Positions 22,627 to 26,470 of a stretch of DNA of 32,000 bases are shown piece after piece. The stretch's first letter is position 1, and every line of letters starts with the position of its first letter. The notes beneath the pieces are model-generated. The model was not told the DNA's origin, searched no databases, and saw only the letters and a program-made list of their open reading frames with translations. Origin of the DNA: Candidatus Thorarchaeota archaeon (GTDB taxonomy: Archaea; Asgardarchaeota; Heimdallarchaeia; Hodarchaeales; Hodarchaeaceae); assembly GCA_048882505.1 (NCBI GenBank), contig JBHLRO010000008.1, forward strand, positions 60,001 through 92,000. The letters are read 5' to 3'. The translations under genes and the position numbers were made by a program.

Positions 22627-23115
22627 TTATTGCCATTCAATACGTGGAGAGTCGTTATCACGCAGGGCCTTATTACACTCCCCAATGTGAAACGCAGTGT
22701 GCCGTAGAACGTATAGATATTTTTCGAATCTAGTTTCAAACCAATCAAATCCGTCTTGAGAAAACATTTCAATATCAGACAACGAAGCCAGGGTCAAGCT
22801 GGCTTTGTTTTCGATCTCTACGAGAAACTCTTGTAAGAAATCCTTGGTAATCTGTAATTTTAGACCTTGAATTTCATCTTGCGATTGTGTATCCCATACT
22901 ATTCCGATTTTATGTCCCCATTTCATTCCTCTTGGATCATCACGCAAATAGAACGCTAATGTTTCGATTACGTGGTATAAAACCCAGGATACAGACCATT
23001 CATTCATTGACTGAAACCAATGCTGTTTTGGACATTTTTCAATAACCTGGGTAGCTAGGTTCAAAGAACTCCTAATTTGCTGTAGGAGGACTTTTTGAGC
23101 AGATATCGATGCCAT
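22627..23115 (-). CDS. DinB/YfiT superfamily protein, 162 aa
   Basis: WSVSWVLYHVIE and YVLRHTAFHIGE give the DinB His triad (H...H-x3-H). Confidence 0.88.
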   Translation of the reverse strand: MASISAQKVLLQQIRSSLNLATQVIEKCPKQHWFQSMNEWSVSWVLYHVIETLAFYLRDDPRGMKWGHKIGIVWDTQSQDEIQGLKLQITKDFLQEFLVEIENKASLTLASLSDIEMFSQDGFDWFETRFEKYLYVLRHTAFHIGECNKALRDNDSPRIEWQ

Positions 23116-23130
23116 TAGTTCACCCCTTGT

Positions 23131-24054
23131 TTAATCCAGTTGACAACAGACCGCCTTAAATATATCTGACGGTTGTATAAATTTTCCTCCACTTATCATA
23201 AAAACGATTAACAACACAGGGATAGAAAAGAAAAAGAACAAGACCAAGAACCAAACGACGGGAAAATTTTGAGCGGAGTATGAAGAGTTTTTGCTGAGTT
23301 TATGTAATTCTAACCCAAAATAGCTAATATAAACCACAGCTATACCCAAACTCCAAAATCCATACTCTCCTTCTAGAGCAAATAACACCCACAAAAACCC
23401 GCCCAACGATAGGGTGACCAACACCAAAATGATCCACATACTTCTATTCATTTCGCGTTTGGAGGGGATACGAAGATTCATAAAACCTAGTACAAAAATC
23501 ATCATCCAAAAGCCTGTGTACGCAAACCAATGTCCCACCACTTCGTCGAGGAACCATACATGCTGATAATATTCCGGTCTAAGAGCCTTGATATCAAGAT
23601 CAATTGCCCGAGAATTGAGAAAATCCGCAGCAGAGTGGATGCCCTGCCCTAGATTAAACGACACAAGGCCCAGGAAATAAAGAGTGATGATTAAAACGGG
23701 TATTTTGCCAGATTGACCTTTTTCCAACCTTTTCCAGATATTTTGAACATCGATTTTAATTTTCATCTTTGTATATTGGATTTCAAGAACTTCAGAATCT
23801 CCAGCATCATACAAAATCCCCAGTAGAAAAAGAGAGTGACATAAAACGACTAGAATGGGGATAGCTAGGAGATTTACGAAATTATCAATGTTATATCCGG
23901 ATTCAGGAAAAATGACCCGACTTATCCAGAAGAAAGCATTTAAGATTATCATTATGAGAGACAAAAGTACCGTGACTAATAAACCTGTAATAGTTCCCCC
24001 TCTAATTGTCCAAGATGCAAAGAACTTGTCAATGATATGTTGAAATATTCCCAA
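23131..24054 (-). CDS. Polytopic membrane protein with CLN6-like motifs, 307 aa
   Basis: About 7 hydrophobic segments. Intramembrane motifs FNLGQGIHSAADFLNSR and WFLDEVVGHWFAYTGF match the G-x2-IH-x3-D-x2-N-x-R and DE-x2-GH-x3-Y patterns I recall from CLN6. Confidence 0.6.
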   Translation of the reverse strand: MGIFQHIIDKFFASWTIRGGTITGLLVTVLLSLIMIILNAFFWISRVIFPESGYNIDNFVNLLAIPILVVLCHSLFLLGILYDAGDSEVLEIQYTKMKIKIDVQNIWKRLEKGQSGKIPVLIITLYFLGLVSFNLGQGIHSAADFLNSRAIDLDIKALRPEYYQHVWFLDEVVGHWFAYTGFWMMIFVLGFMNLRIPSKREMNRSMWIILVLVTLSLGGFLWVLFALEGEYGFWSLGIAVVYISYFGLELHKLSKNSSYSAQNFPVVWFLVLFFFFSIPVLLIVFMISGGKFIQPSDIFKAVCCQLD

Positions 24055-24137
24055 TTTTACTTCACCAGTCCGAAGTCTAATTAGCGCTGGTCAGCAAAGC
24101 AACCAGAGATTTGAACCGGGTTCATTTGGCTAGGATT

Positions 24138-24434
24138 TCAATGGTTCTTGGTTTTTGAAAAACTACTTATTTCACCAGAAGAAGTGAAAGTTACGGCGAA
24201 AACCGCAAATTCTTCATTAAATCCTGCTAGTACGTTTCTACGATAAACATTTCCCGAAATCTGAAGCTTCGTTACTCTAGGCCATCCAGTACTTTCGGTA
24301 ATCGACCTTAGAAGGTTTTTAAATGATTGAGCACATATCCTACAGCAAAAAAACCTCTTAATCCCCTCTATCTCGAGCCAAAAGTTCCCCCAAGTCGAAC
24401 CACATAATACACACCCGTCCGTTCTAGGAATCAA
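24138..24434 (-). CDS. Ta0938-family Zn-binding protein, 98 aa
   Basis: GCVLCGSTWGNFW..IEG...FFCCRICAQSFKNL...TGW....LQISGN matches the Ta0938 pattern (CxxC...CCxxC). Confidence 0.82.
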   Translation of the reverse strand: MIPRTDGCVLCGSTWGNFWLEIEGIKRFFCCRICAQSFKNLLRSITESTGWPRVTKLQISGNVYRRNVLAGFNEEFAVFAVTFTSSGEISSFSKTKNH

Positions 24435-25323
24435 ACTGCTCCGCCCTTTTCAGTCTGCTCATTAGATATTTATCAAATGCTTCGATTGATTTCAGGAATG
24501 TACTTTGGACAGATCTGAGATATACAGATTTTGAGGTTACAATGTACTTTTCTATCAAATCCAAGGCCTCCTCAACGTGCTGGACATCCGCTTCATATCC
24601 TTCCCTTAGGAATGCTTTGGTTGCCTCAGTAATTTTGTTGGTTTTCAAAATGCCTGGATCAAAATAATGTTTGGTTGCTCCTTCCCCACGTAATCCCTTG
24701 TGAGCGATTAATTCCAGACCATGCATTGCCAACATGGCCTCTAGCCAATGATAATTAGCCGCAATATGGTTCCAGAGTCTAATCGATTGTACTGTCTCTG
24801 AAAGAGGTCGCATGGTGATTAGTTTTTCCTTCTTAATGCCCAAACTCTCTCCCATCTTAAGCAACAACTCATAATGTGCCTCCGATCCTTGATAGCCTCC
24901 AAATTCAGTGTTAATATTATCCAATTCATAGAGGACAACGTCATCAAACTCGGTCTTGGCCATAATGTAGGCACAAGATCGCACCCACTGCCTCAAAAAA
25001 TGCTGATGTTCAACGACATAACCCAAGAGCGTGGCACGCGACGGATGTTGGAGAGCCTCGACAAAAGGATGGGCTGGGGACCCATAGAACTTCTCTATGA
25101 AGCGTAATTTTACCCATTTTTTTAATCCCAACTCTTCTACATCGAAGTAATCTCGAAGAAGTGATGCAAGTTTCCTCGGTTTTACTTTTTGATTCGTAAG
25201 ATTCCTATTCAACCATCTTATGTGAGGGGGGTCGCTCGATTCCGTGAACTGATAGATGTGATCAGCCAGTTTTGAAAACTCTTCATCTTCGAAGAGTTCA
25301 TCACAAACCATACATCTTATCAT
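24424..25323 (-). CDS. N-terminal C2H2-type Zn finger fused to a heme-oxygenase-like (TenA/PqqC/CADD) domain, 299 aa
   Basis: CMVC...LADH...H at the N-terminus, then EHQHFLRQW, ELDNINTE..GSEAHYELLLKMGESLG, AMHGLE and EADVQH. Confidence 0.8.
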   Translation of the reverse strand: MIRCMVCDELFEDEEFSKLADHIYQFTESSDPPHIRWLNRNLTNQKVKPRKLASLLRDYFDVEELGLKKWVKLRFIEKFYGSPAHPFVEALQHPSRATLLGYVVEHQHFLRQWVRSCAYIMAKTEFDDVVLYELDNINTEFGGYQGSEAHYELLLKMGESLGIKKEKLITMRPLSETVQSIRLWNHIAANYHWLEAMLAMHGLELIAHKGLRGEGATKHYFDPGILKTNKITEATKAFLREGYEADVQHVEEALDLIEKYIVTSKSVYLRSVQSTFLKSIEAFDKYLMSRLKRAEQFDS

Positions 25324-25356
25324 TAGTATCCTACCATATAAGTTGATTTTCAGCGA

Positions 25357-25572
25357 TTAAACGGGGAAATCCTTTGGAAACCGATTTCTCAATTCGATAT
25401 ATTCGGGCTCGGTTCCATATTTATCACGAACTCCAAGGAGGATCAACCTAACTTCTTCAGTGGTATAACCCCTCCAACCAGAAATCATCCTTAATGTTTC
25501 TTCAAAACTGCCTTTACACGCCCTATAGCAGTCTCCCATGGCTTTGAGCAGCTCATGTTCCTTTGGATTCAT
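25357..25572 (-). CDS. Small helical hypothetical protein, 71 aa, first gene of the Zn-finger/HO-like operon
   Basis: ATG start with an AT-rich box about 20-30 nt upstream. Sequence LLKAMGDCYRAC..FEETLRMI..WRG...Y.ELRNRFPKDFPV. Ends 33 nt before the next gene. Confidence 0.75.
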   Translation of the reverse strand: MNPKEHELLKAMGDCYRACKGSFEETLRMISGWRGYTTEEVRLILLGVRDKYGTEPEYIELRNRFPKDFPV

Positions 25573-25891
25573 TGGTTAGAGCCCTGAGACTTATATTCTT
25601 AAATTACGGATTCCTAAGAAATATAAAGCATTAATGTTCCGATAAAACCATCATTGAATATTGTTCGGAAATGGCTGCATCCTAAAGGTTTCAATACCGG
25701 AGCTAATTACTCCCAGAAATTTTATTCTATCGACTTCGATAGGATCAGTTGTTTATGGCAATCAAGATGTAGATATGCATAGATAACCTTTTGTTCTGTC
25801 AATGCATGATCTTGAATATAAGGAGTTAGTAGCAGTTATTTTCTTCACTGCAAGAGGGAATGCTGCCCAGAAATGGAAAAATAAGACATTT

Positions 25892-26464
25892 TCACTCAAC
25901 GGAATGCTTAATCAATCTCCTTTTGACCTTTGGTAATCCGTATCCAGTTTTTTGACTAGCAACTATTATCGACAAATTATCCCCTTCTGGTACATCCAGC
26001 GCTGCCTGAATGGCATTTTCTACCTCACGTATCAATTCAGAATGATTTTTGACCTTAGAATCAGCCTGAATCAGGTCAAATTTATTACAAACGACAATAC
26101 AGGGTATTCGTTTAGTTAATGGAACTACTCGCTTTTGAAATTCATTTTTTGATTCCAGTAACCGAACGGAATCATGGGCATCGACAACATATATGATTAC
26201 ATTGCATTTTTTGAGATAGGAACTCCAAAGATCCCGTAGTCCTTTTTGACCTCCCAAGTCGATAATGGTAGCTTTTACGAATTCATCATCATCTTCAAGG
26301 CTTATCGCATCCATTGTTGACGCAAGAGTTGGTTTAAGGTCTGTGACAAATTTTCCTGTTGTCAATCTAATATACATGGCAGTTTTTCCTGCATTGTCTA
26401 AACCACAAAAAACCAGATTGATCGGTGCTCCTATGGCGCGAATTGTTGACTTTAAATGACTCAT
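25892..26464 (-). CDS. Small GTPase, Arf/Sar-like, 190 aa
   Basis: G1 GLDNAGKT, G2 KPTLA, G3 DLGGQ, LW in switch II, YVVDAHD and G4 NKFD. The G5 region reads VASQKTG. Confidence 0.92.
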   Translation of the reverse strand: MSHLKSTIRAIGAPINLVFCGLDNAGKTAMYIRLTTGKFVTDLKPTLASTMDAISLEDDDEFVKATIIDLGGQKGLRDLWSSYLKKCNVIIYVVDAHDSVRLLESKNEFQKRVVPLTKRIPCIVVCNKFDLIQADSKVKNHSELIREVENAIQAALDVPEGDNLSIIVASQKTGYGLPKVKRRLIKHSVE

Positions 26465-26470
26465 GAACCA

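Follow-up and report, generated by a model that had tools for sequence, protein, structure and literature searches.

A heme-oxygenase-like archaeal enzyme with a fused zinc knuckle is paired with a Ta0938-family cysteine protein, and with a 71-residue CxxxC protein in some lineages, as seen from a Heimdall-group genome

Three co-oriented genes were analyzed in a 32,000-nucleotide stretch of DNA (the window, here meaning the whole stretch at its full length) from a Candidatus Thorarchaeota archaeon (GenBank assembly GCA_048882505.1, contig JBHLRO010000008.1, positions 60,001 to 92,000 of the forward strand). The source is a 4.3-Mb metagenome-assembled genome of a Heimdall-group (Hodarchaeales-type) Asgard archaeon with 94.5% completeness, in which each of the three genes is present as a single copy. 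According to the open-reading-frame (ORF) listing, all three genes lie on the minus strand: gene 1 (25357..25572) encodes a protein of 71 amino acids (aa), gene 2 (24424..25323) encodes a 299-aa protein with a heme-oxygenase-like (HO-like) domain, referred to here as the enzyme, and gene 3 (24138..24434), which starts with TTG, encodes a 98-aa protein; Pfam matches identify the products of genes 2 and 3, the latter as a member of the Ta0938 family. A gap of 33 nt separates gene 1 from gene 2, and the stop codon of gene 2 overlaps the TTG start of gene 3 by 11 nt. This layout agrees in every detail with the original prediction, made from the sequence of the window, and the Cys and His motifs that it named in all three proteins are present in the translations and do not vary in alignments that each hold 26 to 31 diverse members. 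The gene 1 ATG is preceded at 20-55 nt by TATA-like elements (TTTATAT at ~50 nt and AATATAA at ~20-28 nt), and on the letters alone the A/T-rich segment that holds them (25573..25630, minus strand) is a putative archaeal promoter region. An AGGA motif is found ~8-11 nt before the ATG of the enzyme gene, and together with the gene layout and the TATA-like elements it would fit a single transcript. Among sequencing runs, the stretch was traced to DNA from sediment metagenomes only and to no RNA set.

A scan of genomes at one per species yielded 80 loci encoding relatives of the enzyme, with Bathyarchaeia, Nitrososphaerota, Thermoplasmatota (soil and acidophilic), Sulfolobaceae and the Heimdall group represented. 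In all 80, the gene that comes next after that of the enzyme on the same strand is of the Ta0938 type, and the two usually overlap by 4-14 nt; one of these Ta0938 copies has decayed to a remnant, and another forms a fusion with an esterase. The same adjacency was found by coordinates in five further genomes. In 68 of the 80 loci, the gene just upstream of that of the enzyme encodes a homolog of the 71-aa protein. Two of the 12 loci without it end at a contig edge, and the other ten come from Sulfolobaceae, a crenarchaeal single-cell genome and Thermoplasmatales-type archaea. In six of these ten (L074, L075, L077, L079, L081 and L082, all Thermoplasmatales-type), the position next to the enzyme gene on its upstream side, taken by the 71-aa gene in other lineages, holds a divergent tRNA-Leu(TAG) gene; no tRNA gene was found in the window. 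The profile of the 71-aa family had no match anywhere in five Sulfolobales/Thermoplasmatales genomes that carry the enzyme-Ta0938 pair, while the same profile found exactly one copy in each of five positive-control genomes, always beside the enzyme gene.

Order and orientation are kept in 68 to 80 of the 80 loci, which come from five archaeal lineages, and the co-occurrence of the three genes is not due to chance. The gene-neighborhood comparison thus supports the earlier proposal of a conserved, uncharacterized archaeal unit, with Ta0938 at 80 of 80 loci and the 71-aa gene at 68 of 80; the lack of co-occurrence in other genomes that would have refuted it was not observed. The comparison also changes that proposal in one respect, since the three genes are not equal members: the enzyme and Ta0938 form the obligate core, whereas the 71-aa gene is a lineage-restricted third member rather than a universal one. 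Because the 71-aa protein was not found in five genomes carrying the pair, it is an accessory rather than a subunit or substrate of general occurrence. Within 6 kb of the unit, no further gene family is seen repeatedly across the 80 loci, which indicates that the unit is autonomous, and no linked transporter, pathway, protease, radical S-adenosylmethionine (SAM), exporter or metal pump/efflux genes were found in these neighborhoods. A complex prediction of the three proteins together, in which the 71-aa protein was scored, returned 0.00 against a mark of 0.32; this is read as no verdict and is used neither way.

The enzyme has two domains. Residues 1-60 (25144..25323, minus strand) match the Pfam family zf-C2H2_9 (PF16293) with an E-value of 2.9e-13 and 49.9 bits against a cut-off of 29, and the zinc-knuckle ligands C4-x2-C7, H22 and H34 are all invariant in alignments A1 and A4, the second of which holds 31 diverse members. 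Residues 71-289 (24457..25113, minus strand) form the HO-like domain, for which the best Pfam match is TENA_THI-4 (E 5e-34, over those same residues), with Haem_oxygenas_2 also matching over residues 102-266 (E 5.5e-15, 56.1 bits against a cut-off of 28.9). The enzyme has at least 685 homologs, and as no other PF03070 gene was found in the source genome, it would be the sole TenA-like protein there. The PDB entry 4LQX (SSO2700) matches the enzyme over residues 4-296 (phmmer E 6.6e-85) with an identity of 45%, and this entry is also the top Foldseek match (TM 0.93, root-mean-square deviation 2.0) of the AlphaFold2 (AF2) model of the enzyme, which has a pLDDT of 94.3. The structural neighbors after 4LQX are the Fe/Mn protein CADD, followed by PqqC, BesC, TenA, Sden_3740, HrmI and UndA, all with similarly weak E-values (1e-5 to 1e-3 for CADD, BesC, HrmI and UndA). 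When the enzyme profile was compared to PDB sequences, the only matches outside its own family were PqqC (E 0.015) and 3DDE.

A sister family of enzymes without the zinc knuckle, ~240 aa in length and with 26 cluster representatives, is recognized by the enzyme profile with E-values of roughly 1e-30 to 1e-45; the representative named by source belongs to Thermoplasmatota. Many polar residues are invariant among the 31 members of A4. The residues that are invariant in both the main and the sister family are E105, H106, R115, E133, D135, N136, E140, H150, Y151, H201, E204, D246, H249, Y286 and R293, and these include a candidate ligand set of four His (H106, H150, H201 and H249) and five acidic residues (E105, E133, E140, E204 and D246). 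The sister family does not keep H108, E152, E159, E241 and E244 of the main family. No invariant or near-invariant Cys was found in residues 70-299 across the 31 members of A4; C117 varies and is replaced both in SSO2700 and in the paralogs without the zinc knuckle. Only six positions of the enzyme (81, 91, 111, 139, 161 and 222) co-vary with the presence of the 71-aa gene, and there is no Cys and no obvious ligand among them.

The invariant residues were mapped onto the ligand positions in heme-oxygenase-like dimetal oxidases (HDOs) by helix order in the AF2 model and by spacing, using published helix definitions (PMC7848743, PMC13108848). On this basis, the invariant residues would fall on the HDO ligand helices, namely auxiliary helix α2 and core helices α1-3, with E105/H106 mapping to where SznF has its extra ligand, on auxiliary helix α2. 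Residues E133 and E140 map to core α1 at i and i+7, a spacing that we take to be that of the first CADD ligand pair, while H201/E204 map to core α2 and G242/D246/H249 to core α3. A hidden Markov model (HMM) alignment to PqqC puts the same invariant residues in the PqqC active-site helices. Compared to the 3-His/3-carboxylate set of the HDOs, and by the spacing-based mapping only, five of six positions are ligand-capable and two His positions are occupied by Glu and Gly. If the mapping is right, the site would be a carboxylate-richer variant of this set, in which two canonical His are replaced and three other His are added.

The 98-aa product of gene 3 matches the Pfam family Ta0938 (PF11494) with an E-value of 8.6e-26 and 90.6 bits against a cut-off of 27, and it matches the nuclear magnetic resonance structure 2FQH with an E-value of 1.6e-14. 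Alignment A3 and profile matches delimit a TRASH/YHS-like Cys motif (24333..24413, minus strand) of the form C8-x2-C11-x18-C30-C31-x2-C34, all five Cys of which are invariant in A3. Also invariant are W15, G16, F29, G61 and R66, and T49-G50-W51 is invariant or nearly so. In an exhaustive search of 1.84 billion cluster representatives, the Ta0938 profile gave just 74 matches, 37 of them at E ≤ 1e-10, indicating that the family is small. The weaker, multi-stretch matches of this profile are repeated YHS/TRASH-domain proteins, aligned over positions ~6-46, and a direct match to Pfam TRASH_HVO_1752_C is weak (E 0.022, 15.4 bits against a cut-off of 27) with a compatible C8-x2-C11-x18-C30-x3-C34 pattern. 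These similarities place the N-terminal motif in what would be the TRASH/YHS class of metal sites, and the fifth Cys presumably occupies the Ser position of the F-C-S signature. Domains of the TRASH/YHS type have been suggested as binders of transition metals such as copper and are linked to heavy-metal sensing and trafficking (PMC4626032).

The true start of the Ta0938 genes overlaps the enzyme gene and is non-ATG. Public gene calls shorten these genes to 55-75 aa by starting at internal Met codons (for instance at L102:1795-2124 and L103:2564-2854), and database counts of the family are therefore distorted. The N-terminally shortened representatives P0189 and P0174 are start-codon miscalls, and no in-frame TGA was found in them. 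Proteins of ~150-190 aa with an N-terminus that matches only positions 3-40 of the Ta0938 model occur in many Asgard genomes from other families (e.g., G075:C1:1001652-1001759 and G149:C6:28374-28487); these appear to be a different TRASH-like protein that is not linked to the enzyme.

The 71-aa protein had no match in Pfam or NCBIfam, and a word-indexed protein search gave only 7 close relatives, which by itself would have pointed to a lineage-specific orphan. Direct phmmer/HMM searching of the 80 loci found it in 68. The protein carries a C15-x3-C19 pair, and C15, C19, M29 and R34 are invariant across all 69 sequences. In the 26-member alignment A2, E7, L8, M12, F23, T26, V41, L45, Y58, P66 and F69 are also invariant, and the C-terminal tail is conserved at R62, P66, F69 and P70. 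The AF2 model is an all-helical four-helix bundle with a pLDDT of 93.7. Foldseek found nothing in the PDB at E ≤ 0.001 for this model, the family profile matched only designed repeat proteins among PDB sequences, and a feature search of the ESM Atlas gave scores of 0.78 or less. A wide VIA-align search returned helix-turn-helix (HTH) domains of Sap1, MntR, TnpE and sigma-4/LuxR proteins at a Z of 5-6.3 at best, which is below the level that is meaningful for helical proteins; these sub-threshold matches include metal regulators of the MntR/DtxR/IdeR kind. Given its 12 basic and 12 acidic residues and a conservation that is deep and cross-phylum, the 71-aa protein may be a protein partner rather than an operator-specific regulator.

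The pairing of enzyme and Ta0938 extends to the sister family as well, as a Ta0938-type gene lies directly 3′ of enzyme genes without the zinc knuckle (L083-L086, in the Thermoplasmata genomes G431, G480, G433 and G328). Because these paralogs also keep the downstream gene, the pairing is older than the zinc finger. Neither a separate zinc-finger gene nor a homolog of the 71-aa protein was found near them. Two domain fusions were observed in addition. A single metagenomic ORF of 403 aa (P0140; L087:4001-5212, plus strand), with a SelR/MsrB gene just upstream, combines an HO-like domain lacking the zinc knuckle with a Ta0938 domain; it is known from a single contig, and an assembly insertion or deletion joining two overlapping genes is possible. 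In one Thermoplasmata lineage (L069:6872-8467, plus strand, and protein P0160), a Pro/Ala-rich linker joins a Ta0938 domain to an Abhydrolase_3 α/β-hydrolase esterase, ~490 aa in length and of the hormone-sensitive lipase type, and the fused gene is still directly downstream of the enzyme gene. This fusion may hint at an ester substrate or at an adaptor role.

The unit is unevenly distributed. Full-length Ta0938 was present in 3 of 301 Asgard genomes (2 of 21 in a sample of the genus studied here), and the enzyme was present in 48 of 301 Thermoplasmata genomes, 9 of 101 genomes of the GTDB order Sulfolobales and 3 of 201 Nitrososphaeria genomes. In a tree from a quick maximum-likelihood search, rooted at the midpoint, the window sequence groups with three other Heimdall-group sequences (SH-aLRT 100), and a fifth Heimdall-group sequence, L061, is placed elsewhere on a long branch. 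The tree mostly tracks lineages, which suggests an old presence with many losses and some transfer. Heme-copper oxidase subunit I (COX1) is encoded by 42 of the 48 Thermoplasmata carriers compared to 56 of the 253 non-carriers in the 301-genome sample, and 3 more carriers encode cytochrome bd, bringing those with a terminal oxidase to 45 of 48. The source genome also encodes COX1. Next to the three genes in the window, a pair encoding a winged-HTH protein (514 aa) and an Arf-like GTPase lies on their 5′ side (25892-28015, minus strand) and is kept in congeners. The congeners that have this pair are without the three genes and without the genes for a CLN6-like membrane protein and a DinB-like protein downstream (22627-25572, minus strand), indicating that this stretch is a variable region of the genus.

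The explanation that we tentatively favor, with confidence somewhat below an even chance, is that the enzyme is an O2-dependent metal oxidase and that Ta0938 is its dedicated metal or redox partner. What speaks for it is the linkage of the two genes, in the sister family too, the fold and family of the enzyme, its invariant residues and the association with aerobes, all of them observed here, along with the TRASH/YHS affinity of the Ta0938 motif. The invariant His/carboxylate cluster of the HO-like enzyme would form a variant Fe or Fe/Mn site, dinuclear or perhaps mononuclear, and this site would activate O2 on some substrate. The Ta0938 protein, translated from the overlapping gene, would contact the enzyme as its dedicated partner, and its TRASH/YHS-type Cys4 site with the fifth invariant Cys could either hand metal to a labile enzyme site or pass electrons, a role like that of rubredoxin-type Cys4 centers toward other diiron enzymes. 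The cofactors of HDOs are reported to be labile (PMC7848743), which would provide a rationale for a dedicated metal donor. The 71-aa CxxxC protein would act as an accessory factor in some lineages and, since it is found in non-thermoacidophilic lineages only, would not be essential to the chemistry. The proposition that the metal site is loaded, reduced or gated by the TRASH-type Cys5 protein, aided in some lineages by the CxxxC protein, or else that the enzyme modifies this partner, is one that we regard as doubtful.

Several points weigh against an O2-dependent metal oxidase. TenA and PqqC have the same fold and use no metal. In the spacing-based mapping, the His position on core α1 is E140 and the first His position on core α3 is G242, and the enzyme scores 21.2 bits against TIGR04305, the CADD family, where the cut-off is 200. 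The Cys site of Ta0938 may be a purely structural Zn site. The patchy distribution in Asgard archaea, in the genus sample and in Nitrososphaeria implies that the function of the module is dispensable. The link to aerobes is an association and not a test, as the genomes are interrelated and phylogenetic confounding applies. Lastly, the HDOs studied so far need no protein effector according to a review (PMC13108848).

The genetic pairing could also mean that a small partner is the substrate, with the enzyme oxidatively modifying Ta0938 (e.g., at Cys31 or W15/W51) or the 71-aa protein. The outcome would be a protein-derived cofactor or metal-binding group, by analogy with the self-sacrificial CADD or the peptide-derived pyrroloquinoline quinone (PQQ). 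This would suit the one-to-one gene pairing with translational coupling, the fifth invariant Cys beside the Cys4 motif, the invariant or nearly invariant W15, G16, T49-G50-W51 and R66, and a module that stands alone with no transporter or pathway genes nearby; CADD, moreover, acts on protein side chains (PMC9522330, PMC13108848). However, Ta0938 is a folded domain of 100 aa and not a leader-core peptide, its fusion to an esterase in one lineage suits an adaptor or carrier better than a consumable, and no protease, radical SAM enzyme or exporter is linked to the unit. The 71-aa protein, for its part, was not found in two of the carrier lineages. We consider a role of either small protein as substrate to be quite improbable.

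Public annotations label relatives of the enzyme as PqqC or thiaminase II, and a metal-free enzyme of the TenA or PqqC type, catalyzing hydrolysis in pyrimidine/thiamine salvage or a cofactor-less oxidation, would be in line with TENA_THI-4 as the best Pfam match (E 5e-34), with PqqC as the sole named PDB sequence match outside the family (E 0.015) and with the lack of another PF03070 gene in the genome; the small proteins would then be structural zinc proteins that stabilize or regulate it. Such an enzyme is distinctly improbable in our judgment. The HO-like domain has no invariant Cys (C117 is variable and not conserved in SSO2700), and its pocket is a His/Glu/Asp cluster, whereas TenA has a Tyr/Asp/Cys set and PqqC a basic pocket. 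In the genome, neither PqqE nor PqqB reaches its cut-off, a hydrolase would leave the link to aerobes without an explanation, and we know of no obligate Cys-rich partner for TenA or PqqC. Two identities within this class were rejected. A plain TenA thiaminase II of the Cys type has no place for a HO-like domain without a conserved catalytic Cys, and where the original prediction would have been refuted by such an enzyme working alone, what was found is a domain with no invariant Cys and a partner gene in 80 of 80 loci. PqqC in the sense of a PQQ synthase was rejected on the genome's scores for PqqE (58.6 bits against 381) and PqqB (23 bits against 245), and no pqq neighbors were found in the 80 loci. 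The lack of an invariant catalytic-domain Cys and of PqqE and PqqB matches above cut-off indicates that the enzyme is neither plain TenA nor PqqC.

A module for metal handling or sensing is very improbable. In such a module the TRASH-type and CxxxC proteins would traffic Cu, Zn or Fe, the HO-like protein would store, oxidize or buffer the metal, and the 71-aa protein would be an HTH-like thiol-switch regulator. This draws on the association of TRASH/YHS domains with heavy-metal sensing and trafficking (PMC4626032), on an enrichment of carriers in lineages from acidic metal-rich soils, mines and hot springs (as judged from record titles), and on the HTH DNA-binding domains, including MntR/DtxR/IdeR, that are the best fold matches of the 71-aa protein (Z 5-6.3). 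Those matches, however, are below the meaningful level for helical proteins, and a protein with 12 basic and 12 acidic residues and a surface conserved across phyla would be unusual for a regulator specific to one operator. The unit has no linked gene for a metal pump or efflux, and the HO-like domain has a deep polar pocket whose high conservation gives it a catalytic look. A CADD-type self-sacrificing para-aminobenzoate (pABA) synthase was rejected as the main identity of the enzyme, given a TIGR04305 score of 21.2 against 200 bits and a patchy, dispensable distribution unlike that of a core folate role.

Both main families are already in Pfam, each with a structural-genomics structure (4LQX and 2FQH). 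Ta0938 is shown here to be a small family tied to one enzyme family, with an N-terminal motif that would be of the TRASH/YHS type. Searches of the literature on Ta0938, Ta0939, SSO2700, 4LQX, PF16293 and PF11494 found no paper on function or linkage, in agreement with the earlier statement that the Ta0938 family has no assigned function, and 4LQX and 2FQH were never connected in the literature searched. The only paper recovered was a 2007 list of proteins common to Thermoplasmatales and Sulfolobales, in which both Ta0938 and Ta0939 appear (PMC1852104).

In this archaeal branch of the HO-like superfamily, the enzyme carries a fused zinc knuckle and comes with an obligate partner, a small putative metalloprotein, and the branch is clearly linked to archaea that are aerobic and mostly from acid soils or thermoacidophilic. 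Dimetal oxidases with the HO-like fold are yielding a rapidly growing body of unusual oxidative chemistry, which includes the formation of alkenes, nitriles, N-N bonds and nitro groups and the self-sacrificial synthesis of pABA. Either a metal site that is loaded, reduced or gated by a partner, or modification of that partner, would if true be a new mode of operation for the superfamily. The unit also provides a well-defined system of two or three proteins in which to study the supply or reduction of labile dimetal cofactors in vivo, and genetics is available in Sulfolobus; the genome of Sulfolobus acidocaldarius, part of a control panel, matches the Ta0938 model.

Among known systems, PqqC and TenA have the same fold as the enzyme, belong to the same Pfam clan family (TENA_THI-4/PQQC) and align with it in the active-site helices. 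The enzyme differs from both in having no pqq context, no invariant Cys in the domain, a His/Glu cluster as its pocket and a partner gene in all 80 loci. Diiron enzymes with Cys4 centers include rubrerythrin, the rubredoxin-dependent alkane hydroxylase and the phenol hydroxylases with their Zn-Cys4 YHS region. These combine a carboxylate/His enzyme with a small Cys4 site and may be functional analogs of the module. They are ferritin-like or membrane desaturase-like, whereas the enzyme is HO-like and the folds are unrelated, and Fe binding or electron transfer by Ta0938 is a possibility raised by this analogy.

The HDOs have the seven-helix HO-like fold in common with the enzyme, and CADD is its top structural neighbor after 4LQX. 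Their 3-His/3-carboxylate set differs from the mapped site of the enzyme, which would have Glu for the core α1 His, Gly for the first core α3 His, and the extra His106, His150 and His201. The HDOs are described as bacterial in a 2026 review that does not mention archaea, whereas the lineages of the enzyme are archaeal; and where the characterized HDOs need no protein effector, the enzyme has a fused zinc knuckle and an obligate Cys-rich partner gene (PMC13108848). The closest relatives are SSO2700 of Saccharolobus solfataricus (4LQX, recorded as a 'TENA/THI-4 domain-containing protein') and Ta0939 of Thermoplasma acidophilum, which have the same zf-C2H2_9 plus HO-like architecture. Ta0938 of T. 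acidophilum (2FQH, PF11494) has the C-x2-C ... C-C-x2-C pattern in common with the 98-aa protein, and Ta0938 and Ta0939 have consecutive locus tags and protein accessions. No 71-aa CxxxC gene was found in the genomes searched from the lineages of SSO2700 and Ta0939, whereas the window copy has one, and the window copy comes from a Heimdall-group Asgard archaeon, a group in which the module is rare. With this copy, the module is seen to extend to the lineage nearest to eukaryotes, where it is a rare accessory trait.

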